Shown here: piece after piece, positions 22,928-44,450 of the stretch
Numbering within the stretch: position 1 is the stretch's first letter
Layout: each line of letters starts with the position of its first letter
DNA from: Bacilli bacterium
Lineage (GTDB): Bacteria > Bacillota_I > Bacilli_A > RF39 > UBA660
Reading direction: 5' to 3'
DNA: 44,450 bases
NCBI GenBank assembly: GCA_051886215.1
Contig: JBJEXX010000064.1
Span: 1 to 44,450, forward strand
Notes under the pieces: model-generated
The model's database searches: none
Told to the model about the DNA's origin: nothing
Seen by the model: only the letters and a program-made list of their open reading frames with translations
Program-made: the position numbers and the translations under genes

Positions 22928-22950
22928 AATTGCTACCTCTACCTTAATAA

Positions 22951-22959
22951 AGTATACCA
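22951..22959 (-). promoter_or_regulatory. extended -10 element (TGGTATACT) for the small-ORF/fic unit
   Basis: The minus strand reads TGGTATACT immediately after the upstream terminator and about 25 nt before the ATG at 22927. Confidence 0.4.
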
Positions 22960-22960
22960 T

Positions 22961-22988
22961 AAAAAAAATAGATTTTCATCTAATCTAT
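22961..22988 (-). terminator. rho-independent terminator ending the adhesin-sortase-phosphatase operon
   Basis: ATAGATT (22968-22974) / AATCTAT (22982-22988) hairpin, followed on the minus strand by T8. Confidence 0.7.
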
Positions 22989-23059
22989 CTTTATTTTATT
23001 TGATTTTTATTTTATATTTTCTTAATATCAATCAATTTATTATTATCATCAAAACTCAT

Positions 23060-23617
23060 TTAAAAAATTGCACAATTTTCTATATTACACGGTGATATTT
23101 TTTCACCTTTATAATATATTCCTTCTTTATCATAAGTGCACCAATTAAGTAGAAGAAAAAACATCGCAGTAGAATGTGTTACTATAGCTACTTTTTTATT
23201 TTTAAAATTATTAAGAACTTGATCTAAACTTTCTAGCATACGAGTTCTAACTTCTTTTTGTGATTCTCCATTACCTATTTTATAATCTATTTCTCTTAAT
23301 TGTTTATCATAAAAATCTATAGGTATATCATCCCAGGATGGAACTCCAAATTTTCTTTCACCAAAAGTTTCGATTATATTAATATCAATCCCATTATTAT
23401 TAGCTATATATTTTGCTGTTGATATTCCTCTTATATAATTGGAAGAAATTAAAATATCTATTTGTTTAAGTTCATCTATATTTAATTTTTTGCTTGCTAA
23501 ATTTTCTCCTTCAATTGATAATATTTGCTTTTCATTTTGGATTTGCAAAGAATCACTATTAAGAATATTATTTACTTTTTGTGATATGGAATGTCTAATA
23601 AAATAAATTGTAGTCAT
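23060..23617 (-). CDS. histidine phosphatase superfamily protein (RHS variant of the RHG motif)
   Basis: 185 aa. IYFIRHSIS at the N-terminus and VAIVTHSTAM (second His). Confidence 0.75.
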   Translation of the reverse strand: MTTIYFIRHSISQKVNNILNSDSLQIQNEKQILSIEGENLASKKLNIDELKQIDILISSNYIRGISTAKYIANNNGIDINIIETFGERKFGVPSWDDIPIDFYDKQLREIDYKIGNGESQKEVRTRMLESLDQVLNNFKNKKVAIVTHSTAMFFLLLNWCTYDKEGIYYKGEKISPCNIENCAIF

Positions 23618-23632
23618 ATTAATTCCTCTTAT

Positions 23633-24379
23633 TTAATCATCTTGATTTTTATTTTTTTCTTTTATCTCATTTAAATATTGATATAATAGCTTATATTCTT
23701 CTAAAGTAAATAAATCTTCTTTCTTTTCCCTGGGAATAAACTTTGGTTTATCATATATAATAGTTTGAGTTTGTTCTGGTTGTATTTCTTTTTCTTCTTG
23801 ATCATTTAGTTCTGCTTTTTTTCTTAATTTATTTATAAGTTTTACTATTAATAATACTAATATCCAGATTGTAAAAATATTCATAGTCATTTGAATCATT
23901 ACTAATAAATATTCATTAGAATATACTGCGATATCAGAATATACATTTATATTTTTATCTATTACTATATTTAAACTTAATAATAATAAAAACATAATTA
24001 TTAAGAATACTAAAGTATTTAATCTTTTTAATCCTTTACTAATATTAGGTTTAAACATAGTAGAAATAAATATAATTATTGTAATTATAACCATAATCAT
24101 ATATATTGGTAAATTAGGAAAATATATTGCAACAAAAATATTGTCTATTAAATAATCAATAAAACTCCAAAATGCGGTTCCATATACTATTATTAGAGCA
24201 ATAGTGGCGATTGCGAAAAAAATAGTATAAATAATTTTGTGTTTTTTAGTATAAACTGGACTTAAAATCAAGTAAAAATAAACCAATATAAAAATTAAAA
24301 ATATAAAGATGAACAATGGGTTTTTTCCTAAATATTTAAAAAATTTAGATAACATATCTATTAGTGTTAATCTATCCAT
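23633..24379 (-). CDS. polytopic membrane protein with charged C-terminal tail
   Basis: 248 aa with about 6 TM segments. It lies between the sortase and phosphatase genes with gaps of 12 and 15 nt. Confidence 0.55.
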   Translation of the reverse strand: MDRLTLIDMLSKFFKYLGKNPLFIFIFLIFILVYFYLILSPVYTKKHKIIYTIFFAIATIALIIVYGTAFWSFIDYLIDNIFVAIYFPNLPIYMIMVIITIIIFISTMFKPNISKGLKRLNTLVFLIIMFLLLLSLNIVIDKNINVYSDIAVYSNEYLLVMIQMTMNIFTIWILVLLIVKLINKLRKKAELNDQEEKEIQPEQTQTIIYDKPKFIPREKKEDLFTLEEYKLLYQYLNEIKEKNKNQDD

Positions 24380-24391
24380 AATTCACCTTCC

Positions 24392-25090
24392 TTAATAATT
24401 GGCTTTTTTTCTTAATTCTGCAACGTATATTGTTTGTGTAGTTGAACTATCTTTAGTACAAGTTATAAGAGTTAAAGTAGTTTTTTCTTTATTTCTATAT
24501 ACATTTACTGTTCCAACTTTTGGTTGTTCATAAATATTAACTATTTGATAAGTATATTTTACATTTTGATAATAAACATATACGACATCACCATTAACTA
24601 ATTGATATAGTTGATTAAAAAAAGAATTCCAAGCAGTTCCTGAATGACCTGCGATTATAAAATTACCTTTACTTACATTAGGATAATCAGATCCTGCCAT
24701 AACAGCAATATTTTTATCTACATCATTGTCTGTAGAATTCATATCTAAAAATCCTTTTTTTAATCCAACTTTGGGTACTTCTAATGTTCCAATATAATTA
24801 TAATTTGAATCATAAGGTGTTGGATCTATTCCTTCTTCAGTAACTGTTTCTACCTCTTCCTGCTTTTTCTTCTCTTCTTCTTGTTTTTTCTTTTCTTCCT
24901 CTTCTTTTCTTTTTTCTTCTTCAGCTTTGGTTTCGTTATATGCAAAAATTTTATTATTCATATATGTATAAGCATAATCTATTTTTTTATCTACATAATT
25001 AAAAACAAGCAAAGAGATTCCGAGTATTATACCCAAAATCCCAATTGTTGTTTTTGTTTTACTATTTATTTGTTTTTTCTTTTTTAACAT
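24392..25090 (-). CDS. sortase (class uncertain, A/D-like) with Glu/Lys-rich linker
   Basis: 232 aa with an N-terminal TM. FIIAGHSG (His), LTLITC (Cys) and a downstream Arg (VAELRKK). It overlaps the adhesin gene by 29 nt. Confidence 0.85.
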   Translation of the reverse strand: MLKKKKQINSKTKTTIGILGIILGISLLVFNYVDKKIDYAYTYMNNKIFAYNETKAEEEKRKEEEEKKKQEEEKKKQEEVETVTEEGIDPTPYDSNYNYIGTLEVPKVGLKKGFLDMNSTDNDVDKNIAVMAGSDYPNVSKGNFIIAGHSGTAWNSFFNQLYQLVNGDVVYVYYQNVKYTYQIVNIYEQPKVGTVNVYRNKEKTTLTLITCTKDSSTTQTIYVAELRKKANY

Positions 25091-26420
25091 TTTTTATAAC
25101 AAATCCTGTTCCAACTATGATTATAATTGCTCCTACAATATACATTATCGTTGAGGCAGTTGAGGCAGTATCAGGAACAACTACAGTTTCAGTTACTACA
25201 GCTTCTGGAACTTCCTCTTCTTCTTGTTCTTCAGGTGCGTTATACATAGTTACTGATATAACAGTTCCATCTGCTTTTACTTCAAATTCTACAACTTCTG
25301 TACTTAATGTATATCCATCTGGTGCAGCCGTTTCAGTCAATGTATATTTCCCAGCCGGTAAATTTTCTATGTAATAGTCTTCATCAGTAGTTGTCCAACT
25401 AGCAACAATATTTCCATTAGCATCTTTTACCTCAAGTTTAGCTCCTGGCAAATTTTGTGCAGTGGCCATATCAATCTTTGATATCTTAACTTTAGTTGTT
25501 GTATATATTAATTGTCCTGCATTGCTTACTTTGATTTCTTCTGGAAAGTTTGCAACTAAACTTTGTAATGAACTTGAAGCTGTATATTTATAAGCTTTAT
25601 TTACTGTACCACTAGCATTAACTGTAATTGTAAATTTATTAGTTAATTCTTTATATGAAGCTGCTGGTACTTTTACAACAAATTTATCTCCTGCTGAAAA
25701 TGAATTTTTTTGATTTCCTTTAGTATCTGTAACTATAGTTCCTGATGGAGCCGAATTTAGTGTTACTGTATAATTTCCAGTAATACCACTAGCAGTTACA
25801 CCTATTTGAGTTGATTCATAATATTTTTTATCACTACTTAAAGTCATATTTTTATCAGTAATGTTTAACTTAATACTTGGTTTTGCATAACTTGCTTTTT
25901 TAGCACCCTCTTTTAATGAATATGCCATTTTATAAACATTAGTATTTTTATATGACCCATTTTTGAAATTTTGTAGTGGATCATAACTGTTTCCATTACT
26001 ATTTTTATATTCACTTCTTGGAGTTATCTTGTTTTCTATTCCATTCAAATAGTCAACATACCACCACATTGCAACTTGTGTTGCACCATATCTTTCAGCT
26101 GCACTCATGTTACTATTATTGTCGTATGGATATCCATTATTTATAATGTATGCATATCCAGCATTTAATTCAGAACCTGATTTTTTAATAGTAGTTCCTG
26201 TTGATGGTGATGATTTCTTATCCAAATCTATACAATACACATAAACAGTTTTATTATTATATGTAACTGATTTTTTATAAAAATGCATAGATCCTATTGG
26301 ATTGATTTCTGTTTTACCAGTTATTTTTAAACTACTTGGAGCTTCAGCTTTAACACCTAAAGCAAAAATTCCTACTACTGCAATAATTAAAGTTAATATT
26401 GATTTTATTATTTTTTTCAT
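25062..26420 (-). CDS. sortase-anchored adhesin with TQXA thioester-type domain and CnaB/SpaA-like domain, VPDTA sorting signal
   Basis: 452 aa with a signal peptide. It has a single Cys in VYVYCIDLD and a TQVAMWWY motif. The CnaB-like block is GAKLEVKDANGN...LPAGKYTLTETAAPDGYTL. The C-terminus has VPDTA (25164-25178), a TM and a KKEKTNK tail. Confidence 0.8.
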   Translation of the reverse strand: MKKIIKSILTLIIAVVGIFALGVKAEAPSSLKITGKTEINPIGSMHFYKKSVTYNNKTVYVYCIDLDKKSSPSTGTTIKKSGSELNAGYAYIINNGYPYDNNSNMSAAERYGATQVAMWWYVDYLNGIENKITPRSEYKNSNGNSYDPLQNFKNGSYKNTNVYKMAYSLKEGAKKASYAKPSIKLNITDKNMTLSSDKKYYESTQIGVTASGITGNYTVTLNSAPSGTIVTDTKGNQKNSFSAGDKFVVKVPAASYKELTNKFTITVNASGTVNKAYKYTASSSLQSLVANFPEEIKVSNAGQLIYTTTKVKISKIDMATAQNLPGAKLEVKDANGNIVASWTTTDEDYYIENLPAGKYTLTETAAPDGYTLSTEVVEFEVKADGTVISVTMYNAPEEQEEEEVPEAVVTETVVVPDTASTASTIMYIVGAIIIIVGTGFVIKNVKKEKTNK

Positions 26421-26625: not shown

Positions 26626-27217
26626 TTGAAAAAGAAATTATTAACAATAATATTTTGCTTAATCATATTATTGTTAGCATGTGCAGTTTTATTTAATAAT
26701 GTTAAAAAAGATACAAATGAATCTTTGAAAACAGTAAAAGTTTCTGAAGTAACTCACAGTATTTTTTATACTCCAATGTATGTAGCTGATGCTTTAGGAT
26801 ATTTTGAAGATAATGGAATCGATGTTGAAATAATTACAAGTAGTGGAGCGGACGCAGTTGCAGCTGCAGTACTAAGTGGTGATGTTGATATTGGATTCTG
26901 TGGAAGTGAACAAACAATTTACATCTATAACCAAGGTGAAAAAGATTATTTAATTAATTTTGCTGGGCTTACTAAAAGAGATGGTAGTTTCTTAGTGGGA
27001 AGAACAGAAGATAATAATTTTGATCTAAATAGTTTAAAAGGTAAAACTATTATAGGTGGAAGAAAAGGCGGTATGCCTTCAATGACACTAGCTTACACTT
27101 TGTATGAAAATGGTATTGATCCATATAAAGATGTAACTATTGATACTAGCATCGCTTTTTCATCTATGTCAGGAGCATTTATTAGTGGTACTGGTGATTA
27201 TGTAACACTATTTGAAC
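26626..27217 (+). pseudogene. 5' fragment of a split NMT1/SsuA-like ABC substrate-binding lipoprotein gene
   Basis: TTG start after AAAGGAGG. Lipobox LLLAC. The reading frame continues exactly at 34024. The ORF-track extension to 27234 is element-derived sequence. Confidence 0.85.
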
Positions 27218-27229
27218 TTAGTGTAAGAG
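27202..27229. other. attL of integrative element 1
   Basis: GTAACACTATTTGAAC|TTAGTGTAAGAG, consisting of a host half-site and an element half-site around a shared GAAC. Confidence 0.75.
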
Positions 27230-27265
27230 AATGAAGTCACCAAGTAAAAAATTATAAGTCTATAA

Positions 27266-28975
27266 TCATAGACAAAAATAACAATTCACTTGGTAACACA
27301 CCTTATATCTTTTAGTTCCCCTAGTATCGTATCCTCTTTTAAATTCATAACTACTTCTTAAAATTGGTTGTAGTTTTTTTGTTTCATCATTCTCTTTGTA
27401 TGATAAAAATATATTTAATTCCATATCATTTTTATCATTACATATTTTATACACTACAATATGATCTAATAATAAACTTATTATTTTATTTGTTGTAGAT
27501 TTTTCAGTTGTTTTTATTTTGAGAAATTCATTAAGTTCTTTAGTTTTATCTATTGTTACTTTTATTTGTTTTTTATTTTTATTTAACTTAATTAATTCAT
27601 TATCAATAATCTTAATCTTTTTATTATAAAAATCATTTCTTTCCGTAAATTCTTTATTTGATATACTACCTTCTAAACTAAGTTCTAATAACTTCTCTTT
27701 TTTTTGAAATAAATCATTTTTTTTCTTTATTATAGTATTGATTTCATCATCTATGTCAGTATCAAATTCTAAATATTTATAATAGTTCATAAGAATATTA
27801 ATTACTTCATTAGAATCTATTTGTAATTTAGAAATTAAATCCTTAAAAATTACATATAATTCTGATTCTCTAATATTAGGTGAATCACAAAAACTTTTGC
27901 CTTTTTTTAAATATTCAGAACAAACCCAAGTAATATCTTTTTTATTTTTTCTAAACTCTCTTCTGTGAAAAACTGTATTATGTTCAGCACAATATATTTT
28001 AGCACTATATAAATATCTATTTTTATATATACTTTTATCTTTTTTTCTTTTACTAAAAGCTTTTTTTCTAGCTATTAATCTAGTATTAGCTCTTTCCCAT
28101 AAATCTTCATCAATGATTGGTGGTATTCTTGTTTTATCTTCGTAGATAACCCAATCATTTTTTTCAAAGTATTTTATCTTTTTAGTCATATAATCTACTA
28201 TTTCAGATTTTTTAGCACAATAATATCCTTTATATTTAGGATTTTCAATCATTCTAGAAATAGTAGATATACACCATTTTTTACCTAATCCAGTTTTTAA
28301 ATCTTCATTATTTAAAATCTTAACTATTTTAGAAAGCGATAATTTTTCTATACCATAATATTCATAAATTCTTCTAACTACTTTTGCTTCTTCCTCTATG
28401 ATATTTAATACTCCTGTATCCTTATTTTTTTTATAACCATAAAGTAAATCATTACCTAGTATTTCACCACGTTCTATAGCTCTATTCATACCAAATTTAA
28501 CACGTTCTGATAATCTTCTAATTTCATCTTGAGCCATAGAAGCCATTATGGTTAATCTAAGTTCTGAATCAGGCATAGCAGTATTAATATTATCATTGAC
28601 AAATAATACAGCTACTCCGAAAGATAAAAGTTCTCTAGTATATTTAATACTATCAAGAGTATTTCTTGAAAATCTAGAAATTTCTTTGGTGACTATTAAA
28701 TCAAATTTACCATTTCTAGCATCTTCAATCATTTTCATAAAGTTATCTCTTTTAACATCACTTGTACCAGTTATTCCATCATCTACATAACCAGGTATAT
28801 AAGTCCAATTTGGATTTCCTTTTATATATTGTTCAAAATGTTCTATTTGATTTTGAAGAGATTTTTTTTGCTCACTGGTGTCTGTGGATACTCTTGCATA
28901 ATCTGTTACTCTAAGTTTTATATTAGTAAGAGGTACTCCCATATTTAATTGTTTTCGAACAGTATATAAATCCAA
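27266..28975 (-). CDS. large serine recombinase
   Basis: 569 aa. Resolvase catalytic region YARVSTD...KKSLQNQ, a recombinase domain, a Cys-rich zinc-ribbon region (CAEHNTVFHRR...WVCSEYLKKGKSFC) and a coiled-coil tail. TTG start after AAAGGAGAA. Confidence 0.92.
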   Translation of the reverse strand: MDLYTVRKQLNMGVPLTNIKLRVTDYARVSTDTSEQKKSLQNQIEHFEQYIKGNPNWTYIPGYVDDGITGTSDVKRDNFMKMIEDARNGKFDLIVTKEISRFSRNTLDSIKYTRELLSFGVAVLFVNDNINTAMPDSELRLTIMASMAQDEIRRLSERVKFGMNRAIERGEILGNDLLYGYKKNKDTGVLNIIEEEAKVVRRIYEYYGIEKLSLSKIVKILNNEDLKTGLGKKWCISTISRMIENPKYKGYYCAKKSEIVDYMTKKIKYFEKNDWVIYEDKTRIPPIIDEDLWERANTRLIARKKAFSKRKKDKSIYKNRYLYSAKIYCAEHNTVFHRREFRKNKKDITWVCSEYLKKGKSFCDSPNIRESELYVIFKDLISKLQIDSNEVINILMNYYKYLEFDTDIDDEINTIIKKKNDLFQKKEKLLELSLEGSISNKEFTERNDFYNKKIKIIDNELIKLNKNKKQIKVTIDKTKELNEFLKIKTTEKSTTNKIISLLLDHIVVYKICNDKNDMELNIFLSYKENDETKKLQPILRSSYEFKRGYDTRGTKRYKVCYQVNCYFCL

Positions 28976-28978
28976 TTT

Positions 28979-29119
28979 TTATTCTCCTTTTAATTCTTTT
29001 AATATATTTTCTTCTGTATATTTAAACATTCTATAGGAAATTTTATTTTCATTTAATAATTCTTTATTTATAAAAAGCGCTAGTTCTAACATAAGTTTTT
29101 TCTTATCAATATATTCCAT
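28979..29119 (-). CDS. 46-codon ORF immediately upstream of the recombinase (possible directionality factor or regulator)
   Basis: Hand translation gives MEYIDKKKLMLELALFINKELLNENKISYRMFKYTEENILKELKGE. ATG after AGGGGA. Its stop lies within the recombinase RBS region. Confidence 0.35.
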   Translation of the reverse strand: MEYIDKKKLMLELALFINKELLNENKISYRMFKYTEENILKELKGE

Positions 29120-29189
29120 AAATTCCCCTATATAAATTTATGAAATAAATATTAAGATATACTTAAATTAATTTATATATCTTTTTTAG

Positions 29190-29222
29190 TAAAAAAAATA
29201 GAACTTATAATTAAGATTCTAT
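29190..29222 (-). terminator. rho-independent (bidirectional-looking) terminator ending the cargo operon
   Basis: ATAGAACTTA (29198-29207) / TAAGATTCTAT (29212-29222) hairpin flanked by an A8 run and a T-run. Confidence 0.65.
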
Positions 29223-29348
29223 TTTTTACAATATTTTTCATTTAAAGATTTTTCTATTTTTTAGCAATATTTACAAATATAATTTTAATTAATTGTCATC
29301 ATCTGTTTTTAATCTAGCCTTACTCGTTAATTTCATAATAATCTTCTT

Positions 29349-29873
29349 CTATAATTCAAATTCCAACATTTCACAATTTTTAATACCAATGTTAAAAAGT
29401 TTGCCATTACCTACTCCATTAAAATAAACCTTAAAGGCTCTACCAACACCCTTATGTGTAACTACTAAAACATTCTCATACTTTTGTTGTTTCAATTCTT
29501 CAATAAAATTATTAACTCTATTTAAAAAACTTTTAATATCTTCACAATCTTCATATTTATATTCATTATAATAATCCCAATATCCTTCACGATTAATATC
29601 GGTTAAGGTCTTACCAATTAATGTGCCAAAATATCGTTCTTTTAATCTATCATCAAAAATAATACTCTTATTTTTAACATTTATTATTTCTGCAGTGTTT
29701 TTAGCTCTTATAAAAGGTGATGAAATGATAATATCATAATTTATATTTTTAATTTTTTCTCTTAACCTTTTAGCTTGTTCAATTCCTATATCTGCAAGAT
29801 TTGTTTCAGGTGCATTATGGACTTTTAATAAATTTGCTACTGTTTTACCATGTCTAATTACATATATTTTCAT
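29349..29873 (-). CDS. histidine phosphatase superfamily protein
   Basis: 174 aa. IYVIRHGKT (RHG) and VVTHKGVGRA (second His). Confidence 0.85.
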   Translation of the reverse strand: MKIYVIRHGKTVANLLKVHNAPETNLADIGIEQAKRLREKIKNINYDIIISSPFIRAKNTAEIINVKNKSIIFDDRLKERYFGTLIGKTLTDINREGYWDYYNEYKYEDCEDIKSFLNRVNNFIEELKQQKYENVLVVTHKGVGRAFKVYFNGVGNGKLFNIGIKNCEMLEFEL

Positions 29874-29889
29874 AAATAGTCTCCTGAAT

Positions 29890-30396
29890 TTAATTTATTT
29901 GTAATTCTTTTTCTACTTCGATAGGAAGTAATGCATTAATTCCTATCTTTTTATATTGTTCAATATTATTTATCAATTCATCTATAAACAATATTTCATT
30001 ATAATTACAATTATTTATTTTACTTATTATTTCTATTGCATTAATTTTTAATTTTTGACTCGATGAAATTATAATTTCAATATCTTCATTATAATGTTTT
30101 TTTATAAAAGACTTTTTAGCTTGTAAATTAAATGAAAACTTCATACCTGAAACACAATACATTTTTATATTTCTATTTTTTAAAATCTTTATTAGTTTCT
30201 TTAATATATCTGATTCATAACATATTTCTATTTCATCATAAAAAATATCAGGATTTAAATATGCATTTAGTAAATAATTCATATAAACTTCTTTATTATC
30301 TTTCCTTTTTTGTAAATATTCCTTATCTTTGTGTATAGCTAATGTATCATCAAAATCAAATATTACTACTTTTATATTTTCCAACTCATTAATCAT
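29890..30396 (-). CDS. small HAD-superfamily hydrolase-like protein
   Basis: 168 aa. Motif I VVIFDFDDTLA (DxDxT), a motif II-like YCVSG, and a motif IV-like LFIDE. Confidence 0.65.
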   Translation of the reverse strand: MINELENIKVVIFDFDDTLAIHKDKEYLQKRKDNKEVYMNYLLNAYLNPDIFYDEIEICYESDILKKLIKILKNRNIKMYCVSGMKFSFNLQAKKSFIKKHYNEDIEIIISSSQKLKINAIEIISKINNCNYNEILFIDELINNIEQYKKIGINALLPIEVEKELQIN

Positions 30397-30397
30397 A

Positions 30398-31846
30398 CTA
30401 TTCTCCCATTTTTATAAAAAAATCTTGATATATTTTATTTCTATATAAATCATTAACAAATATAACTTGATGTCTATCTGTTGTTTGCTCATATAATCCA
30501 TTATCTAAAACAATCGGACAACTAATCATTTCAGATTTAAACCAATCAGCATTTATTTCATAGGCAATTGCACTTAAATCCCATAGTGTTTTACTTGATC
30601 CTATTTCATCAGCTGGTTCTTTCATAAATGACTTTTTACATTTAATAAATTCTTCACATAAATATTTATTTAACTTTGTATTTTCACTTAAATAATGTTT
30701 TAACTCATATATTGTGGTAGATAAATTTGCTGCGACATTTCTGCAAGGTATAACTACTAATTCTACTTTAGAATCAAATACTTTTTGAACTGCTTTAATG
30801 TCTTGTCTAAAGTTGAATTCACTATTATCCTTAGTTAAGAAACTATTTCCTCCTAACCAAACAACTTTTATTTTATTTACTATTTCTGGAGATTTTTCTA
30901 TTGCTAAAGCTACATTAGTTATTGCACCAATTGCTAGTATTGTAGTTTTATTATTCTTATTAGCTATTTCTATTATTTTTTCTACAGCTTCATTAGTTTC
31001 CTTACTATCATTAAAATATTTTGTAGCACCTTTATAAACTTTTTCTTTATATTCTGTTTTATTTAGCATATCTAATATATTTAATGTTGTTTCATAACTC
31101 TTTTCAGTACCTTCTTCAATAGTTTCTGTATTTGCATAACCACTTTTTAAAAAAGGGGCTATAGTTATTGCTTCTAAATCAAAAACATCTAAAGATTTCA
31201 TCAAATAAGTTAATGCAAATTGATCATCAACTTCATTATACATATCTGTATCAAGTATTACTTTTTTCTTATCCATATTTGTCACCACCTCATATAATTC
31301 TTTCCAATTATTAACTACTTTTAATCCTTCTATATTTTTTAAATTATAATTTGTTGCCATTAAATAACAATTAATATTATTCTCTTGTAATTGTCTACAA
31401 TTAGTTCTAACATCATCAAACATTATATCTATATTATTTTCTTTACATTCTTTAGTTTTATTTGTATCTTTGGATAATATTAATTTAGTATAATTTATAT
31501 TGTTTTCTTCTAACCATTTTTTTGTTACTTGATATGGATTGGTGTAATCTGGATAAGCTCTATGGGAAATAAGATATAGACTATGTCCTTCTTGCAATAA
31601 TTTATCCATATAATATTTAGAATCTTTTCTTGGTTCAAATTGTTTAGCAAAGCTTTCCATATTTTTATGATAAAACTCTTCTATTTCCTCTTTAGACCAA
31701 TCAAAAAAATCTTTTATCCAATTACCATTTGGGTTTACTATTCCTCTATTTCTTTTATTTTTATCTTCCTTTAGAAATTCAGCTAATAATTTTTTATCAA
31801 AATCCGTTATAACATTATCTATATCTAATCCAATTCTCATATACAC
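30398..31846 (-). CDS. fusion protein: N-terminal 5'(3')-deoxyribonucleotidase-like HAD domain plus C-terminal inosine/uridine-preferring nucleoside hydrolase domain
   Basis: 482 aa. N-terminal IGLDIDNVITDF (DxDxV/T nucleotidase motif). From about residue 193, KKVILDTDMYNEVDDQFALTYL matches the DxDxxxDD nucleoside hydrolase fingerprint. Confidence 0.7.
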   Translation of the reverse strand: MYMRIGLDIDNVITDFDKKLLAEFLKEDKNKRNRGIVNPNGNWIKDFFDWSKEEIEEFYHKNMESFAKQFEPRKDSKYYMDKLLQEGHSLYLISHRAYPDYTNPYQVTKKWLEENNINYTKLILSKDTNKTKECKENNIDIMFDDVRTNCRQLQENNINCYLMATNYNLKNIEGLKVVNNWKELYEVVTNMDKKKVILDTDMYNEVDDQFALTYLMKSLDVFDLEAITIAPFLKSGYANTETIEEGTEKSYETTLNILDMLNKTEYKEKVYKGATKYFNDSKETNEAVEKIIEIANKNNKTTILAIGAITNVALAIEKSPEIVNKIKVVWLGGNSFLTKDNSEFNFRQDIKAVQKVFDSKVELVVIPCRNVAANLSTTIYELKHYLSENTKLNKYLCEEFIKCKKSFMKEPADEIGSSKTLWDLSAIAYEINADWFKSEMISCPIVLDNGLYEQTTDRHQVIFVNDLYRNKIYQDFFIKMGE

Positions 31847-31863
31847 CTCTATATTATATAAAT

Positions 31864-33918
31864 TTATCTTGTAATATTATATATAATTCCATATAAATCG
31901 TATTCTTTTTCACCTATTAAAGATTTTTTTTCAAATTGTATTTTACCACCTGTTTTTTTATAAAAATTTAAAGCTCGTATATTATCTTTAAGACACCATA
32001 AAATCATTTTCTTTTTATTTTGAGATTTAAGATAATTTATTGTATGCTTTAATAAAAATGTTCCAATATTTTTACCTTTATATTCTGGTTTTATATATAA
32101 ACTAACTAGTTCGCAGTCATATTCATTATTATTTATATTATCATTAAAAGTTGAATATCCTACTACTTCTTCAGTCTTATTATCTACTGCGACTAATACA
32201 GAATTTTTATATTGTTCAAAACTATCTATATACTTTTTAGTCTGTTCTTCATAATTTAGACTTTCTAAATAATCTAAAGAAATTATTTCTTTATAGGCAT
32301 CTTTCCATCCATCTACTTTTATATGAGCCATCTGTTCTTGATCTTTTAATTGATTGAAGCGAACAGTATAATTATTCTCAACTAAAAGTTTTTGAATTGA
32401 ATCGTTCATTAAATTCATACAATATATTAATTTATCTGTTTCAAAGGCAAAAGTAACTCTTCCAACTAATTCATCATGATATGGCCAACTTATAGATTGT
32501 CCAATAAGAAAACGTAAACGATTGGTTAAATAGAAAAATTCTAACAAATCTCTTTCTGTTTCAATTTTTTTACCATTATACATCATTCCTTTTAAAGCAG
32601 TAAAATCTAATATAGCGAAAAAACCTGCCTCTGGTTCTAAATTATCTGGAAATTTTACATATGGCAATCCTTTTAATAATTCATTTCTTTTTTTCTCATC
32701 CGGAATATTTTTTTCTATTTCCTGTTTTACTTTAATATACATTTCTTGATTTTGAATACTATCTATACCTTCTACTAAAGCTTTTAAAATATTATATCTA
32801 AAGACATAGTTTTCTCTTATGGGATTAAAATATTCTTCATATTCAATCTGTCTGTTTCTAGATGCATTAAACGCTCCAATTAAAGCTTTTCCAACTATAT
32901 CTGGTGAAGAATCCATTTCTTGAAAAATTCTATTAACAACTTCACGAATTATAATTTCATCTGCGACTATGAAACCAGCTCGTAAACTAGCTAAACCATA
33001 ACTTTTTGATAATCCAAATAAAGTAATAGTATTTTTAAACATTCCAGGAATTGTAGCGATTGGTTTAGCTATATTATTTTTATCAAAAGTAATATCTCTA
33101 TAAACCATATCATCAATTACAAAAACTCCTCTTTCTAAACATACCTGACCTATTTGTCGCAATAGTTCTTCTTCATTTTTACCCATGACTTTACCAGTAG
33201 GATTACTGGGATTAATATTCAAAAACGCAACAACTCTTGGAACATAGCCTTTTCTTCTATTGTATATTCTTTGCAAAGAATAATTAATCTCATCAATTGT
33301 ATTGGCTAATTTAGTAGGATTAATTAAAAAGTTATCTTCTTTTTCCAAAGGAATTACTTCTACTTCAGCACCTGCTCTTTCAGCACGAATAGTAAAAAGT
33401 CCATAATTTGGACCAGGTATTAAAATTACGTCTCCTGGTTTTGAGATAATATTTATTAAAATATTAAAAATAATAGAAGTAGATGGTAAAAAAGTCAAAT
33501 TATGAACAGATAATCCTTTTTCATCTATATCCTCATAATCATATGGCTCTGTATTTATAAAACCTTCTTGTTCTATATAATCCAAAAGAATTTTTCTAAT
33601 CCTATCATCACCTTCTGTATAAGGGTATTTATACATTTCATCATTTTCTAAAGATGTTATCATTTCTCTAATTGATCCCGGAAAAGGTTTACATTTCATA
33701 GAATTTCCTCCACCTAAATCAATATCTGGTCTTGTAGCAATTTCTTCATCGCGAACTTCAAAACCATAAAAATTTATCGCATCTGCGATTTCTTGAACAT
33801 TAGGATTAAACTCTTCCCTATCTAATCTTTTACCTATTGCAGGCAAGCCAAATCTTCTTTCTTTTAAATCAGGATTTTCTCTTAATAACCTATCAATTGC
33901 CGTAGACTTTTTTAACAT
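31864..33918 (-). CDS. fusion protein: class I/II PLP aminotransferase plus C-terminal GNAT acetyltransferase
   Basis: 684 aa. Aminotransferase blocks ILIPGPNYGLF, NINPSNPTGKVM, VIDDMVYRD and LFGLSKSYGLASLRAGF (PLP Lys). The C-terminal GNAT motif A is LYIKPEYKGKNIGTFLL. Confidence 0.75.
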   Translation of the reverse strand: MLKKSTAIDRLLRENPDLKERRFGLPAIGKRLDREEFNPNVQEIADAINFYGFEVRDEEIATRPDIDLGGGNSMKCKPFPGSIREMITSLENDEMYKYPYTEGDDRIRKILLDYIEQEGFINTEPYDYEDIDEKGLSVHNLTFLPSTSIIFNILINIISKPGDVILIPGPNYGLFTIRAERAGAEVEVIPLEKEDNFLINPTKLANTIDEINYSLQRIYNRRKGYVPRVVAFLNINPSNPTGKVMGKNEEELLRQIGQVCLERGVFVIDDMVYRDITFDKNNIAKPIATIPGMFKNTITLFGLSKSYGLASLRAGFIVADEIIIREVVNRIFQEMDSSPDIVGKALIGAFNASRNRQIEYEEYFNPIRENYVFRYNILKALVEGIDSIQNQEMYIKVKQEIEKNIPDEKKRNELLKGLPYVKFPDNLEPEAGFFAILDFTALKGMMYNGKKIETERDLLEFFYLTNRLRFLIGQSISWPYHDELVGRVTFAFETDKLIYCMNLMNDSIQKLLVENNYTVRFNQLKDQEQMAHIKVDGWKDAYKEIISLDYLESLNYEEQTKKYIDSFEQYKNSVLVAVDNKTEEVVGYSTFNDNINNNEYDCELVSLYIKPEYKGKNIGTFLLKHTINYLKSQNKKKMILWCLKDNIRALNFYKKTGGKIQFEKKSLIGEKEYDLYGIIYNITR

Positions 33919-34007
33919 ATCACACCTCTAATATATCTTTATTATATCATATATAGTCTGTTTTTGATAAAAATATATCTACAATAATATTTTACTGACT
34001 TTGTTTT

Positions 34008-34035
34008 GTTACACTAAGAGAACCTAGTGCTTTAC
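34008..34035. other. attR of integrative element 1
   Basis: GTTACACTAAGAGAAC|CTAGTGCTTTAC. The element half-site mirrors TTAGTGTAA at the left end. Confidence 0.75.
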
Positions 34036-34433
34036 AATTGGAAAAACAAGGTTTTGGTAACGTCGTTGCAAGTATAGGTAAATTAGGTGGAGAGGTTCCT
34101 TATACTACTTTTAATGCTAGAAAAAGTTTTATAGAAAATAATCCTGAAACTATTGAATCTTTCACTAATGCAATTCAAGAAGGCATTGATTATACATTTT
34201 CTCATAGTGAAGAAGAATTAGCGGATATCATAATAGATTATTTTACTGATACTTCTAAAAAAGATTTAATAGAAGTTATAAAAAGATATAAAGATAATGA
34301 TTCTTGGTATAAAACAACATATATTACAGAAGATGGTTGGAATAGAATTCAAAATATAATGGAATATAATAAAGTTTTAGATTCTAGGGTAGATTACAAA
34401 ATATTAGTAGATAATACTTATTCTAATGAATAA
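34024..34433 (+). pseudogene. 3' fragment of the split NMT1/SsuA-like substrate-binding protein gene
   Basis: The frame is continuous with 26626-27217 (…TLFE-P-SALQLEKQGFGNVV…). It overlaps the ATPase start by 8 nt, as expected in an operon. Confidence 0.85.
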
Positions 34434-34840
34434 AATACTAAGTATTAAAAATCTTAAGAAAATATATCATACTAAAAATGATGAAACATTAGCTGTTGAT
34501 AATTTTTCTTTTGATTTAAATGATGGTGATTTTGTCGCTATTGTTGGCCCTAGTGGATGTGGTAAATCAACAATACTATCAATACTTTGTGGTTTAGAAA
34601 ATAAATCAGATGGAACAATTGAAAAAGATAAAAATATTAAATTTGGTTATATGCTTCAGGAAGATTGCTTATTTCCATGGAAAAATATATTAGATAATTG
34701 TATATTAGGACTAGAAATACAAAAAAATGTAAATAAAGAAAGCAAAAAATATGTTAATGATTTATTAGATACATATGGACTTAAAGAATTTAAAAAAAGC
34801 TATCCTGAAAACTTATCAGGAGGTATGAGACAAAGAGTTG
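34426..34840 (+). pseudogene. 5' fragment of a split ABC transporter ATP-binding protein gene
   Basis: Walker A GPSGCGKST and ABC signature LSGGMRQRV. The host frame breaks after QRV; the remaining codons to the stop at 34845 are element sequence. Confidence 0.88.
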
Positions 34841-34860
34841 GTTGAATACTATTAAGACAC
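34831..34860. other. attL of integrative element 2
   Basis: Core CAAAGAGTTG (34831-34840) followed by the terminal inverted repeat TTGAATACTATTAAGACAC. Confidence 0.75.
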
Positions 34861-34938
34861 AATTTAAATTATCATTAATATTATTTTTTCGTATATTAAG
34901 TTATTAAATAAATATAATAGTATTGTTAGGTGATGTAA

Positions 34939-36303
34939 ATGAAAAAGAAATTATTTTTTTGTTTTTTAGTAATTATTATTTTAGTGCTAATTATTTTTAC
35001 TACAATATGCTTCTGTAAAAAAGATACTAAAAGTACTAAAAAGTTAGAAGCAACAGTTATGGCAATAGATAGTGATAGTATATCAGTTCAAGATAATAAT
35101 AATATTATTTATACATTTAATAATCAAACAATAAATACCAACATTGGAGATAAAATAGTTATTGAATATACAGGACTATTAAATAAGAATTATAATATAC
35201 AAGATAATAAAATTATTGATTATACTATTGCTACTATAGAAAAAAATGAAAATGGTATACCAAAATCATGGTTAGATAATGGCATATTTAGTCAATATTA
35301 TATTCTTGCTAATGACAAATTACAAGAATTAACATTAGAGGAAAAGATAAGTCAACTTCTTTTAGTTAGATATCCTGATAATGATCCAATAGGAGAATTG
35401 GGAAAATATCAATTTGGTGGTTACTTGTTTTTTGAAAAAGATTTTAAAAATAAAACAAAAAAAGAAGTTCAAAACATGATGGCATCTCTTCAAAAAAGCG
35501 CTAAAATACCTATACTTACTGCTGTTGATGAAGAAGGCGGAAAAGTAGTACGTATTAGTAGTAATACTAACCTTGTTAATGAAAAATTCAAATCTTCTCA
35601 AGAGCTATATGCATTAGGTGGTTTTGAAACAATAAAAAATGATACAATAAATAAAAGTAATTTACTTAATAGTTTGGGAATTAATTTAAACTTAGCACCC
35701 GTTGTTGATGTATCTACTAATCCAAATGATTATATGTATGAAAGAAGTTTTGGCCAAAATACTGAACTAACATCTACTTATGCTAAAACGGTAATTAATG
35801 CTAGTAAAAATTTGGGTGTATCATATACATTAAAACATTTCCCAGGATATGGTAATAACGATGACACTCATAATGGTATATCTGTTGATAATAGAGATTA
35901 TGATGACATCATAAATAATGATTTACCCCCATTTAAGGCCGGAATAGATGTAGGAGCTGAAGCTGTTTTAGTAAGTCACAATATTGTCACAAATATTGAT
36001 AATTCAAATCCAGCCTCTCTTTCTCCAAGTATACATAATTTACTTCGCAATGAATTAAATTTTACAGGAATAATTATAACAGACGATTTAGCTATGGGAG
36101 CAATATCATCTATAAATAATGCAACTGTAAAAGCAATACTTGCTGGCAATGATTTAATTATTACTACAGACTATATAAAAAGTATAAATGAAATAAAAGC
36201 AGCAGTTAACGATGGTACTATTAGTGAAGATTTAATTGATAAATTAGCTTTTAGAGTATTAGCTTGGAAATATTACAAAGGATTAATGTTTATAAATAAA
36301 TAA
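34939..36303 (+). CDS. membrane-anchored glycoside hydrolase family 3 (NagZ-like beta-N-acetylhexosaminidase), element cargo
   Basis: 454 aa with an N-terminal TM. GH3 N-domain motifs AVDEEGGKV, KHFPGYG and IIITDDLAM. Confidence 0.85.
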   Translation: MKKKLFFCFLVIIILVLIIFTTICFCKKDTKSTKKLEATVMAIDSDSISVQDNNNIIYTFNNQTINTNIGDKIVIEYTGLLNKNYNIQDNKIIDYTIATIEKNENGIPKSWLDNGIFSQYYILANDKLQELTLEEKISQLLLVRYPDNDPIGELGKYQFGGYLFFEKDFKNKTKKEVQNMMASLQKSAKIPILTAVDEEGGKVVRISSNTNLVNEKFKSSQELYALGGFETIKNDTINKSNLLNSLGINLNLAPVVDVSTNPNDYMYERSFGQNTELTSTYAKTVINASKNLGVSYTLKHFPGYGNNDDTHNGISVDNRDYDDIINNDLPPFKAGIDVGAEAVLVSHNIVTNIDNSNPASLSPSIHNLLRNELNFTGIIITDDLAMGAISSINNATVKAILAGNDLIITTDYIKSINEIKAAVNDGTISEDLIDKLAFRVLAWKYYKGLMFINK

Positions 36304-36323
36304 GGATCATTGATCCTTTTTTA
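36302..36323 (+). terminator. rho-independent terminator after the GH3 gene
   Basis: AAGGATC-ATT-GATCCTT hairpin followed by TTTTTT. Confidence 0.7.
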
Positions 36324-36513
36324 TTAGTCTTAAATTTAAGAATAATTAATATAATATATTAGTGATAATTATGAAAATTAAGTATAATATTATTTCTATT
36401 TTTAATAATAAATATTCTCAAAATGTATTAAGTAATATTATAAATGAAAAAATATATAGGATTATTTTTTATTTAAACAACAATAAAAATATATTTTAAA
36501 AAGTGAAGGTGAT

Positions 36514-38100
36514 ATTATTAATAAAAAAAACAAAAAACTAAATGTAGGAATCTATTTACGATTATCTGATGAAGATAAACATAAGAATCATATAGACGAT
36601 GATAGTGAATCAATAAAAAATCAAAGAAATTTACTATTAGAAGAAATTAAAAAACATCCTGAATATATTTTAGTAGATGAATATTCAGATGAGGATCTAT
36701 CTGGAGCTGGTACTTATCGTCCAGAATTTGAAAGATTAATAAAAGATTGCAAAAACAAGAAATTAGATATTGTTCTTTGTAAAAGCCAATCAAGATTCTC
36801 TAGAGATATGGAAATTATTGAAAAATACTTACATAATAAATTTTTGGAATGGAATGTTAGATTTATTAGTTTATCAGATAATGCAGATACAGCAAATATT
36901 GGAAATAAAAAATCACGTCAAATCAATGGACTTGTAAACGAATGGTATTTAGAAGATGTTTCAAATAATATTAGAAGTGCTTTTAAAGCTAAAATGAAAA
37001 ATGGTGAATTTATTTCTCCATTTGCACCATTTGGTTATGAAATAAGTAAAATAAATAATAATAAATTAATTGTTGATAAAGAAGCTAGTGAAATAGTAAA
37101 AAAAATATTTCAATTATATATAGAGGGGTTTGGATTCGGAGGGATTGCTAAATATTTAAATGAAAAAAATATTCCTAGTCCATCTCTTTATAAATTTCAA
37201 AAAGGTATAAAACTAAATATTGTAAGCAACCGTTCAAGAAAAGATATTAAATGGTCAAATAACGCTATTAAAAATATACTAAAGAATGAAGTTTATCTAG
37301 GTCATTTAATACAAGGGAAAAGAACTACTATAAGTTATAAAAATCATAAAATTAAAAGAAAAGATAAATCTGAGTGGATAAAATATGAAAATACACATCC
37401 TTCAATAATTGATAAATATACTTTTAACAAAGTGCAGAATATTATGAAACAAAAAATAAGAACGGCTAAAAATAGTTATATAATTCATAACCTTTCTGGT
37501 AAAGTTTTTTGTTTGGAATGCAAAAGTAAAATGCGAAAAAAAAATTCTAGTAAACATAATTATTTAGTATGCTCTAATTATAGTATTAATAAAAAATGTA
37601 CTAACGTAAAATCTATTAGATATGACGAACTAGAAAAAATAATACTTAAGGAAATTAATAAACAAATTGAAAAATTTTATGATGAGAATGCTTTAAAAAT
37701 AAAATTTAATCATAATAAAGAGTTAAATGTTAAACATAATATAAATAATATGTATAAGCAATACAATAATATAAATAATAAAATAATTGAAATTAATAAT
37801 TATATTAAAAATTTATATGAAGATAAAGTAAATGATATTATAACCAATGAGCAATTTTGTTTGTTTTCTTCTCAATATAATAATGATTTAAAAAAATATA
37901 AATCACAAATTAATTTAATAAAAAATAACATTGAGTTATATAAAAATAATAATTATTTAAACTTTAATCATTTTTTTAATAAAGTTGGTTTTAAAGAACT
38001 TAATAGAATTATTGTAGAAGAATTTATAAAAAAGATATATATTGGTCACATTGATTTAGATACTACTCAAAGAGATATTATTATAGAATGGAATTTTTAA
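36514..38100 (+). CDS. large serine recombinase with no canonical start codon upstream of its catalytic domain
   Basis: The frame is open from 36487. The catalytic region VGIYLRLSDEDK (Ser codon 36565-36567) lies upstream of the first ATG (36808, the ORF-track start). GAAGGTGA (36505-36512) precedes ATT codons at 36514 and 36517. Recombinase and Cys-rich domains (CLECKSKMRKK...LVCSNYSINKKC) follow. The exact start is uncertain. Confidence 0.8.
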   Translation: MINKKNKKLNVGIYLRLSDEDKHKNHIDDDSESIKNQRNLLLEEIKKHPEYILVDEYSDEDLSGAGTYRPEFERLIKDCKNKKLDIVLCKSQSRFSRDMEIIEKYLHNKFLEWNVRFISLSDNADTANIGNKKSRQINGLVNEWYLEDVSNNIRSAFKAKMKNGEFISPFAPFGYEISKINNNKLIVDKEASEIVKKIFQLYIEGFGFGGIAKYLNEKNIPSPSLYKFQKGIKLNIVSNRSRKDIKWSNNAIKNILKNEVYLGHLIQGKRTTISYKNHKIKRKDKSEWIKYENTHPSIIDKYTFNKVQNIMKQKIRTAKNSYIIHNLSGKVFCLECKSKMRKKNSSKHNYLVCSNYSINKKCTNVKSIRYDELEKIILKEINKQIEKFYDENALKIKFNHNKELNVKHNINNMYKQYNNINNKIIEINNYIKNLYEDKVNDIITNEQFCLFSSQYNNDLKKYKSQINLIKNNIELYKNNNYLNFNHFFNKVGFKELNRIIVEEFIKKIYIGHIDLDTTQRDIIIEWNF

Positions 38101-38110
38101 CACCATATAA

Positions 38111-38136
38111 GTGTCTTAAAAACATTCAAAGAGTTG
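38111..38136. other. attR of integrative element 2
   Basis: GTGTCTTAAAAACATTCAA (the inverted copy of the left terminus) followed by core CAAAGAGTTG (38127-38136). Confidence 0.75.
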
Positions 38137-38468
38137 CTTTAATCAGGACACTTGCTACAAAACCAGATATTTTACTTTTGGATGAACCTTTTTCAGCTCT
38201 TGATTATACATCAAGATTAGCTATTTCTGATGATATATATAAAATTTTAAAAAAAGAGAAAAAAAGTATAATAATGGTTACTCATGATATTGCTGAAGCA
38301 ATATCCATGTGTGACAAAGTAATTGTTTTATCAGAAAGACCTGCTAAAATAAAGAAGATTTATGATATAAAATTAAGTGACAAATCCAATCCTATTAATA
38401 ATAGAAAAGCTAAAGAATTTTCTTATTACTATGATAAAATATGGAAGGATATAGACTTTCATGTATAG
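38137..38468 (+). pseudogene. 3' fragment of the split ABC transporter ATP-binding protein gene
   Basis: ALIRTLATKPDILLLDEPFSALD (Walker B) and VTHD (H-loop). The frame is continuous with 34426-34840. Confidence 0.88.
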
Positions 38469-39249
38469 TAATGAACATAAAATTTTCTTGAAAAAAGAAA
38501 AAAGAAAAAAAAGATTAATTCTTTTCTTTCAACTCCTAATAATTTTACTATTCATTATTCTTTGGCAAAAATTAACAGATATGGGTATAGTTAATAGTTT
38601 TATATTTTCATCACCTAAAAAGGTTATTATGACTATAGGAGATTTATATATTAATAACAATTTATTAAAACATATCTGGATTACAGTATATGAAACTATT
38701 ATAAGTTTTGGACTTGGTACAATATTGGGAATTGTAATTGCTAGTATTCTTTGGTGGAACGATTATATATCAAAAATAATGGATCCATATTTAACAGTAT
38801 TAAATGGCCTACCTAAAGTAGCACTTGGTCCTATAATAATAATCTGGTTTGGAGCAGGAATAAAATCAATAATAGTTATGGCTCTTCTAATTTCATTAAT
38901 TATTACAATTATAAATGTTTATCAAGGTTTTATAAAAATAGATACTAATAATATTAATTTAATGAAATCATTAGGAGCTAATAAAAAACAAATATTTTTT
39001 AAACTAATATTACCTGGCAATTTAAATACAATTATAAGCGCTTTAAAAGTAAATATTAGTATGTCTTTAATTGGCGTAATAATGGGTGAATTTTTAGTAT
39101 CAAAAGAAGGAATAGGATACATAATTATGTATGGTTCTCAAATATTTAATTTAAATTTGGTTATTACTGGAACTATTATATTGTGTGTTGTAGCAACTAT
39201 AATGTATTGTTTAATCACTTTTATAGAAAAGAGATTAGTAAAAAACTAA
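38461..39249 (+). CDS. ABC transporter permease (SsuC/TauC-like)
   Basis: 262 aa with about 6 TM segments. It overlaps the ATPase stop by 8 nt. An EAA-like loop region reads NLMKSLGANKKQIFFKLILP. Confidence 0.85.
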   Translation: MYSNEHKIFLKKEKRKKRLILFFQLLIILLFIILWQKLTDMGIVNSFIFSSPKKVIMTIGDLYINNNLLKHIWITVYETIISFGLGTILGIVIASILWWNDYISKIMDPYLTVLNGLPKVALGPIIIIWFGAGIKSIIVMALLISLIITIINVYQGFIKIDTNNINLMKSLGANKKQIFFKLILPGNLNTIISALKVNISMSLIGVIMGEFLVSKEGIGYIIMYGSQIFNLNLVITGTIILCVVATIMYCLITFIEKRLVKN

Positions 39250-44196: not shown

Positions 44197-44258
44197 AATA
44201 TATGAGAAATAATTCTCTGAAAACTTAGATAATATCGATTCATCAAATTATAAATAAT

Positions 44259-44450
<192 letters not shown>

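Follow-up and report, generated by a model that had tools for sequence, protein, structure and literature searches.

Background

Large serine recombinases (LSRs) act through a recombinase dimer bound to each of the attP and attB sites, followed by synapsis, double-strand cleavage at a central dinucleotide, subunit rotation and religation. Classic cases of integration into a coding sequence are A118 in comK and SPbeta in spsM. Here we examine two LSR-type integrative islands, designated E1 and E2, that split neighbouring genes of a single ATP-binding cassette (ABC) importer operon in a 44,450-nucleotide stretch of DNA (contig JBJEXX010000064.1; hereafter the window, meaning the whole stretch analysed) from an uncultured, very low-GC gut Bacilli bacterium of a reduced-genome clade.

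Insertion of LSR elements into conserved sites within coding sequences, with one site used by many diverged LSRs, has been documented at scale, and recombinases carrying DUF4368 form a multi-targeting clade among LSRs (PMC10083194, Durrant et al. 2022). Serine-recombinase elements of the integrative and mobilizable type (IMEs) are well known in Firmicutes (PMC5704250, PMC5357655). A further group comprises elements whose excision restores the interrupted gene: skin in sigK, SPbeta in spsM with SprA/SprB (PMC4191935, PMC5499854), gin in gerE (PMC5595907) and the nif elements of heterocystous cyanobacteria (PMC11249958). Elements of this last group are lineage-conserved and interrupt genes that are needed only in a terminally differentiated cell.

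An original prediction made from the letters of the window had proposed that two unrelated LSRs precisely interrupt two genes of the operon, and it left three explanations side by side: an insertion hotspot in a dispensable locus, sequential decay, or a regulated switch requiring two excisions. Our analysis favours the first. We consider it likely, with good confidence, that E1 and E2 are strain-specific mobile islands inserted into a conserved but dispensable importer operon that serves as an integration hotspot of the clade, and that they are not part of a host developmental programme.

Results and discussion

Two precise insertions in one importer operon

The operon (26626..39249, plus strand) encodes a substrate-binding protein (SBP), an ATPase and a permease, and the two insertions divide these three genes into five pieces (Table 1). 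When E1 is removed in silico, positions 26626..27217 and 34024..34433 form an uninterrupted SBP of 333 amino acids (aa) with the join LFE/PSA, the slash marking the junction; removal of E2 joins 34426..34840 to 38137..38468 and gives an uninterrupted ATPase of 248 aa with the join RQRV/ALI. Intact alleles for comparison were taken from the 90%-identity protein clusters that hold the window SBP and ATPase fragments. Nine intact 333-aa SBP variants differ from the join by 5-9 residues and six intact 248-aa ATPase variants by 4-5, so that the joins are 97-98% identical to natural alleles of the same length, with no difference at the junctions. Contig L108 (Logan SRR31627669; labels of the form L108 or P0217 are our own handles) carries the whole locus uninterrupted at 94.6-96.2% nucleotide identity to the window, in the order Fic, His_Phos, sortase, pilin, SBP, ATPase, permease and HelD. 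Over 66 nt, the attB1 of L108 matches the predicted join exactly, and its attB2 differs from the prediction at 3 nt, consistent with the overall identity of about 95%. Since the intact near-conspecific alleles match the joins and the L108 locus is empty, the two precise insertions are confirmed beyond a chance explanation. The parts lie where the original prediction had placed them, the two recombinases, rec1 and rec2, are only about 24% identical and represent distinct LSR families, and the proposed regeneration of intact open reading frames (ORFs) agrees with the near-conspecific alleles; judged from these joins, excision restoring both genes is plausible.

The islands are not fixed in the population. 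Most alleles in the window's own 90% clusters are intact, and the ATPase site exists in three states within the window's species cluster: empty in most alleles, occupied by E2 in the window, and occupied by a different element in P0257, P0260 and L110. The comparison of attB occupancy among close relatives that had been proposed therefore shows both sites to be polymorphic, with L108 empty at both.

Attachment sites

The hybrid attL and attR sites of each island resolve into an attB and an attP, both imperfectly dyad-symmetric about a short core that the two have in common. The boundaries of E1 were set by comparing attL with attR and with the empty site of L108. On the left, attL1 reads CTATTTGAAC followed directly by TTAGTGTAAGAGAATGAAGTCACC; on the right, attR1 reads GTTACACTAAGAGAAC followed directly by CTAGTGCTTTAC. 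The reconstructed attP1 is TTACACTAA-GAGAAC-TTAGTGTAA, in which TTACACTAA and TTAGTGTAA form a perfect inverted repeat around GAGAAC. The reconstructed attP2 contains nested inverted repeats, GTGTCTTAA...TTAAGACAC and ATTCAA-AGAGTTGG-TTGAAT. The rec1 family targets the SBP codons LFE/PSA with the shared core GAAC, and the rec2 family targets the ATPase codons RQRV/ALI, just past the LSGG signature, with the shared core CAAAGAGTTG. The symmetry of attP suggests GA as the probable central dinucleotide of site 1 and GT as that of site 2. The attL1 element arm recurs in L008-L012 and L095-L102, and the attL2 junction with its arm in at least 14 other genomes. The E2 junction of the window strain itself occurs in the read sets SRR30616816, SRR30616818 and SRR30616838. 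Unoccupied attB sites are found in L108 and also in the empty loci L009 and L038.

Recombinases and small upstream ORFs

Both recombinases have the three-domain architecture of LSRs. Matches in rec1 are to PF00239 (4e-32), PF07508 (3e-22) and PF13408 (5e-8), with the catalytic motif YARVST; those in rec2 are to PF00239 (6e-20), PF07508 (1e-26) and PF13408 (7e-13), with the catalytic motif YLRLS (in VGIYLRLS). The nearest solved structures to both are the C. difficile conjugative-transposon recombinase (3g13), SprA of SPbeta (9dxh) and TnpX (2mhc).

The start of rec2 required correction. It had originally been read as a 430-aa ORF beginning at 36808; the frame is in fact open from 36487, includes the catalytic motif and encodes NKKNKKLNVGIYLRLSDEDK, where, as in all homologs, the catalytic domain begins. 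Because the open frame covers the full catalytic domain, a truncated pseudogene starting at the ATG at 36808 is ruled out. There is no ATG, GTG or TTG start; a strong ribosome-binding site, GAAGGTGA, is followed by in-frame ATT ATT (36484..36520). In L005, the closest relative, GGTGGTGG followed by ATT ATC occupies the same place (4503..4530), and more distant rec2 orthologs begin with ATG. As the same arrangement is kept in L005, this is possibly a conserved weak AUU start rather than a lesion, and it could limit recombinase expression.

A small ORF lies directly upstream of each recombinase gene, as the original prediction had pointed out, and conservation beside every homologous recombinase examined identifies both as real genes and as reasonable candidates for directionality factors. 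Counterparts of SM1 (74-77% identical) occupy the same position in all rec1 elements examined. SM2 homologs are immediately upstream of rec2 in every ortholog checked (L005, L024, L029, L035, L036 and L040); in L029, L035 and L036 the stop codon of the roughly 39-aa counterpart overlaps the recombinase start (ATGA), indicating translational coupling. This coupling, together with conservation upstream of all rec2 homologs, rules out SM2 as an artefact of AT-rich sequence. Neither SM1 nor SM2 has a Pfam match even at E<=10, and SM1 has no NCBIfam family match either. A motif resembling "NEKIY" occurs in both, but homology between them was rejected at an hhalign probability of 0.15%.

Cargo of the two islands

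The four cargo genes of E1 include two unusual fusion proteins, a deoxynucleotidase (NT5C)-nucleoside hydrolase and an aminotransferase-GNAT acetyltransferase. The latter is a singleton cluster in a collection of about 15 billion proteins. The same holds for the glycoside hydrolase (GH3) carried by E2, whose NCBIfam beta-N-acetylhexosaminidase match is below the cutoff and whose ortholog in the L005 element is 71% identical. The islands explain strain-specific metabolic cargo, namely an extracellular hexosaminidase of the GH3 type and a set of genes for nucleotide/nucleoside salvage.

Occupancy and cargo at the ATPase site in relatives

An SBP-based scan of GTDB species genomes gave 80 loci. 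Among Bacilli species representatives with an assessable ATPase, 13 of 26 are cut at the same codon (residue 139) and the other 13 are intact. All 13 cut ATPases share the element arm TGAATRTTRTTAAGACAC, and a rec2-family LSR (60-73% identical) is present wherever the contig reaches far enough (L005, L024, L029, L035, L036 and L040); further family members were found by protein look-ups in L103 and L111-L116. Every rec2 homolog context examined is at the same ATPase codon. Empty and occupied sites coexist in close genomes: L009 (empty) and L008 (occupied) are 99.9% identical over 10.2 kb, and L038 (empty) and L035 (occupied) are 94-98% identical in the flanks.

Cargo at this one site is variable. 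Besides the GH3 variant of the window and L005, we found a metal-resistance variant (two heavy-metal P-type ATPases with HMA, ArsR, Sua5 and Bro-N), a PrsW protease with RhuM/Fic, a DMP19/AAA_25/DUF4238 variant, and SocA_Panacea with AAA_25 and a Mob_Pre relaxase. In L029 a full-length sigma-70-type factor (8260..9804; regions 1.2, 2, 3 and 4; 514 aa) is apparent rec2-element cargo beside the metal-resistance genes. The Sua5/YciO/YrdC-family gene of the metal-resistance variant has an omega of 0.2-0.47, above that of neighbouring genes.

Two other accounts of the split gene were rejected. One is that the ATPase works as two separately translated halves: the ATG-started 3' ORF of the window is not conserved, and an in-frame stop (TAA) lies just upstream of the junction in L040. 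An apparent frameshift in the ATPase half of L036 reflects a run of N in the assembly and not decay.

Spread of the rec1 element

At 80-86% identity, rec1 has homologs in more than 100 protein clusters, almost all of exactly 569 aa, and wherever the flank is readable these homologs abut the 5' part of an NMT1-type SBP gene at the same codon, with the same element arm. Contexts for rec1 came from exact-protein look-ups; the SBP-based genome scan retains full-length SBP matches only, so that sites occupied by rec1 elements are under-sampled in it. Between the window and L009, rec1 is 85% identical and the host SBP 55%. A case in point is P0217, a single identical rec1 recombinase: the ends of its element, likewise identical, adjoin three different SBP sequences, from three host species. 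The cargo (a hydrolase, RhuM, DUF3419, a NikA-like protein and the small ORF) is identical throughout, which points to very recent transfer of this element between species. E1 of the window is without the NikA-like module of its relatives and has its own cargo instead. Scans of viral contigs with rec1 and rec2 as single proteins returned nothing useful.

Further target sites and erosion of the operon

Two additional serine recombinases bring the number of different recombinase target sites in the operon to at least four across relatives. The first is a third LSR (532 aa), whose element interrupts the SBP gene at about residue 150 in L107 (2198..9463), a member of the window's species cluster; the same site is also occupied in L008, L095-L097 and L099. 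The L107 element is roughly 7 kb and full of small phage-like ORFs, its attB is GGTGGAAGAAAAGG/TGGAATGCC (the slash again marking the junction), and its arms contain GTGATAAC/GTTATCAC repeats. The second, a serine recombinase of about 390-424 aa with Resolvase and Zn ribbon domains and no Recombinase-domain match, abuts a permease truncated at about residue 206-223 in L096, L099 and L103. Double occupancy as in the window was found in L005, L008 and L098.

Erosion of the operon is also evident. Directly behind rec2, L005-L007 lack both the attR2 arm and the ATPase 3' half. The sequence following the rec2 stop in L005 (6101..6200) is unrelated to attR2, the permease is gone as well and Ank and AAA_5 genes come next; the sequences of L005 and of L006/L007 after that stop diverge from about 25 nt onward. 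ATPase and permease are wholly absent in L100-L102 and L015. In L015 (9998..16037) the SBP gene is an orphan with no adjacent ATPase or permease, followed by Lon, MiaA and QueA on the opposite strand. L015 and L016 are the two relatives whose SBP is most similar to that of the window (68% identity each), and L016 retains both partner genes.

Inheritance and selection on the split gene

At a coarse scale, rec2 identity tracks host identity. Strict vertical inheritance of the rec2 element as a general rule is ruled out at a finer scale, where element and host synonymous divergence (dS) are incongruent: within the metal-resistance group, L033-L035 have a host dS of 0.14 and an element dS of ~0.5, and L027-L029 a host dS of 0.5 and an element dS of 0.11-0.19. 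Because the two disagree, elements must have passed between related hosts.

The ATPase 5' halves of occupied genomes have an omega of 0.05-0.2, like the uninterrupted SBP, out to a dS of about 1. These values would fit insertions that are young compared with the divergence of the species, or equally a gene that is restored from time to time. Recent, repeated insertion would be sufficient as an explanation of the omega values, given the incongruence of elements and hosts and the polymorphism at strain level.

A probable hotspot for mobile islands, and the alternatives

We propose that each island was inserted by its own LSR at its own attB, so that recombination of attP with attB would have produced attL and attR and split the gene. 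With both genes split, this genome would have no functional transporter. The reverse reaction between attL and attR would restore both genes exactly. If other LSRs are a guide, it would depend on a directionality factor, and the candidates for this role are the conserved small ORFs upstream of the two recombinases. An insertion hotspot in a dispensable locus, one of the options originally listed, is the explanation favoured by the variable cargo, the occurrence of one rec1 element in three hosts, the dS incongruence and the number of target sites in the operon.

Several observations weigh against this reading. The missing canonical start codon means that rec2 may be poorly expressed or inactive. 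No relaxase, Mob or NikA-like match was found in any window ORF of E1 or E2, which makes present mobility uncertain, although an oriT is possible. Patterns for the attP junctions of both elements gave 0 matches in viral contigs, as did the attP1 junction in JGI metagenome contigs, both searches having low power because the clade is rare there. Finally, E2, with GH3 and rec2, is common to the window and L005 at a divergence equal to that of the host flanks (75-78% nucleotide identity, dS about 1), which would fit long co-residence, a possible history for this lineage, better than very recent arrival. Over the same distance the ATPase 5' half has an omega of 0.08, and there must accordingly be a route to a functional gene or repeated re-insertion.

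These last points bear on a reversible, population-level on/off switch in the style of active lysogeny or phase variation, in which the lineage would alternate between transporter-off and transporter-on states with no host programme. We regard such switching as rather unlikely. It would account for the intact att sites, recombinases and small upstream ORFs, for exact empty sites in very close relatives (L009 next to L008, and L108), for occupancy in half of the related species representatives, and for the low omega of the ATPase 5' halves, including that between the window and L005 where the orthologous E2 is equally diverged. Recent independent insertions into genes that had evolved intact explain the omega values equally well, however, and the dS incongruence supports them; an attP or circular form was not found in the viral or JGI contigs, with the low power noted above; the copy in L005-L007 is no longer precisely excisable; and the absence of ATPase and permease in L100-L102 and L015 points to dispensability. 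A stronger version would make the operon a dedicated landing pad for at least four unrelated recombinases, with insertion and excision as a selected switch of the transporter at the population level. It is suggested by the coexistence of occupancy in about half of the species representatives with purifying selection on the split halves (omega about 0.1), and we consider it distinctly unlikely. Were it true, the off state could be favoured if the transporter is a receptor liability or an uptake route for a toxic compound, and SM1 and SM2 would be new families of recombination directionality factors.

Sequential decay, in which the elements would be remnants that no longer move and the operon of this genome a group of decaying pseudogenes, seems very unlikely. 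The rec2 start and the lack of mobilisation genes in both elements fit it, as does the further erosion in L005-L007, L100-L102 and L015 and the truncated permease of L096, L099 and L103. Against this, the four gene fragments, the permease, the recombinases, the small ORFs and the four att arms are all free of stops and frameshifts, the fragments are only 2-3% different from intact conspecific alleles, and retention of the non-canonical rec2 start with its ribosome-binding site in L005 argues for function. The originally suggested two-key developmental switch, with domesticated elements excised on cue by the host like skin, SPbeta, gin or the cyanobacterial nif elements, agrees with the geometry (precise interruption, a recombinase at the element edge, a conserved small ORF beside it) and has multi-element precedents in nif clusters (PMC11249958), but is extremely improbable because the elements are absent from most near-conspecific alleles, cargo and even element type vary between strains at the same site, the rec1 element is passed from one species to another, the transporter is an ordinary importer, which several relatives lack or can do without, and the window holds no sign of a terminally differentiating cell type.

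The importer of this genome is better annotated as two genes whose disruption may be reversible than as four fragments or pseudogenes. The locus also provides a natural LSR data set, consisting of two predicted attB/attP pairs, many diverged recombinase orthologs per site and candidate small partner ORFs, which could be used to study the evolution of LSR specificity and the reasons that certain conserved yet dispensable genes turn into hotspots of integration in small genomes.

The host operon and its surroundings

The importer is of the NitT/TauT type. NCBIfam places it in the SsuA/Tau/Nit group, with Sao also among the sub-threshold matches, and none of these reaches its curated cutoff; no Rfam match to a riboswitch that would name the substrate was found upstream of the operon. 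The window permease is identical in protein sequence in L001-L003. The genes flanking the operon belong to the core chromosome and encode a thioester pilin with sortase, PcrA, FtsY, RNase J, LigA, HelD and TsaBDE; the 5S/23S rRNA end also falls here. The thioester-domain (TED) SpaA-type pilin and its sortase lie just upstream of the operon, and the window also holds another sortase along with Fic and GGDEF proteins (22192..26420 and 11694..12527 for the group). The pilin-sortase-SBP synteny is kept in L100-L102 and L108. A 5S rRNA, together with the 3' end of a 23S rRNA, lies at the window edge (44090..44450, minus strand). No sporulation genes occur in the window, of which the 44 kb cannot settle the host lifestyle. 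In L020, a 6.9-kb stretch without a recombinase separates the SBP and ATPase genes and includes a gene (16968..17627) for a bacterial protein that combines a eukaryote-like ubiquitin-family domain (E=3e-28) with a Listeria-Bacteroides repeat.

Table 1. Positions of the importer genes, islands, attachment sites and related features (window coordinates unless a relative is named)
Feature	Position	Strand	Description
SBP 5' part	26626..27217 (ORF to 27234)	+	residues 1-197; NMT1/SsuA-like lipoprotein; Pfam NMT1 E=2e-17
attL1 (B-P' hybrid)	27190..27250		core GAAC at 27214..27217; element arm TTAGTGTAAGAGAATGAAGTCACC
Element E1	27218..34023		6,806 bp, 23.9% GC; LSR-type integrative island splitting the SBP gene
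rec1	27266..28975	-	intact 569-aa LSR; Resolvase, Recombinase and Zn_ribbon_recom
SM1	28979..29119	-	46-aa conserved small ORF directly upstream of rec1; candidate directionality factor or regulator
E1 cargo, four genes	29349..33918	-	Pfam
Histidine phosphatase (E1 cargo)	29349..29873	-	Pfam
HAD-like protein (E1 cargo)	29890..30396	-	Pfam
Deoxynucleotidase (NT5C)-inosine-uridine nucleoside hydrolase fusion (E1 cargo)	30398..31846	-	Pfam
Class I/II aminotransferase-GNAT acetyltransferase fusion (E1 cargo)	31864..33918	-	Pfam
attR1 (P-B' hybrid)	33995..34050		core GAAC at 34020..34023; element arm ends in GTTACACTAAGAGAAC
SBP 3' part	34024..34433 (ORF 34038..34433)	+	residues 198-333; end of NMT1 profile
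ABC ATPase 5' part	34426..34840 (ORF to 34845)	+	residues 1-138; Walker A, Q-loop, LSGG signature; ABC_tran positions 2-117
attL2	34810..34876		core CAAAGAGTTG at 34831..34840; element arm GTTGAATACTATTAAGACAC
Element E2	34841..38136		3,296 bp, 22.4% GC; minimal LSR-type integrative island splitting the ABC ATPase gene
GH3 cargo of E2	34939..36303	+	membrane-anchored, beta-N-acetylhexosaminidase-like, 454 aa; Glyco_hydro_3 1.4e-60
SM2	36371..36499	+	42 aa from ATG; conserved small ORF directly upstream of rec2
rec2	36517..38100	+	LSR, about 527 aa; Recombinase, Resolvase and Zn_ribbon_recom
attR2	38101..38172		core CAAAGAGTTG at 38127..38136; element arm AAGTGTCTTAAAAACATT
ABC ATPase 3' part	38137..38468 (ORF 38088..38468)	+	residues 139-248; Walker B, D-loop, H-loop; ABC_tran positions 115-137
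Permease	38461..39249	+	intact, 262 aa; BPD_transp_1 2e-27
SM2-counterpart ORFs	L029 15431..15541; L035 10832..10942; L036 8639..8749		upstream of rec2 orthologs
Fourth-recombinase loci	L096 2035..3963; L099 2137..3960; L103 12048..13962		
Sua5/YciO/YrdC cargo	L028 7595..8215; L029 14748..15362; L033 18623..19237; L035 10148..10762		

Comparison with known systems

The closest match is to the LSR elements that integrate in coding sequences (PMC10083194). As there, a three-domain LSR stands at the element edge, the att sites are short with imperfect dyad symmetry around a short core, the target is a conserved ORF, diverged recombinases and varied cargo share one attB, and precise excision would restore the gene. 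The window elements differ in being tiny non-phage islands (3.3 and 6.8 kb), in lying in neighbouring genes of one operon that has at least four sites across relatives, and in belonging to uncultured reduced-genome gut Bacilli, with predicted attB sites.

The islands also resemble IMEs, in that relatives carry mobilisation modules beside the same recombinases, either Mob_Pre with AAA_25/DnaB_C (L103 and L111) or a NikA-like protein (L008 and L095), as well as accessory or defence-type cargo (RhuM, Fic, SocA and metal resistance). Unlike IMEs, which have their own relaxase and/or an oriT or relaxosome gene, the window copies of E1 and E2 have no recognisable relaxase or relaxosome gene and are stripped down to a recombinase, a small ORF and metabolic cargo. 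Most rec2 homologs share a weak DUF4368 match with TnpX and TndX (Tn4451/Tn5397; PDB 2mhc), and rec2 matches the TnpX catalytic domain at E=3.7e-8. DUF4368 was not detected in the window rec2, however, and the rec2 family is strictly single-site in the contexts examined, in contrast to the multi-targeting of TnpX and TndX.

With skin, SPbeta, gin and the nif elements the islands share the precise interruption of a gene by a serine recombinase element and an adjacent small ORF as candidate directionality factor, and nif clusters likewise can be interrupted by several elements (PMC11249958). In contrast to those lineage-conserved elements, the islands of the window are strain-variable and horizontally exchanged, with changing and in part singleton cargo, and nine SBP and six ATPase variants are intact in the same 90% clusters. 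Nor is the target a gene needed only in a terminally differentiated cell, being an SsuA/Tau/Nit-type importer that some relatives lack. The case thus adds new members to the LSR islands, an example of an integration hotspot and two uncharacterised families of small ORFs, and is not a new kind of system or switch.

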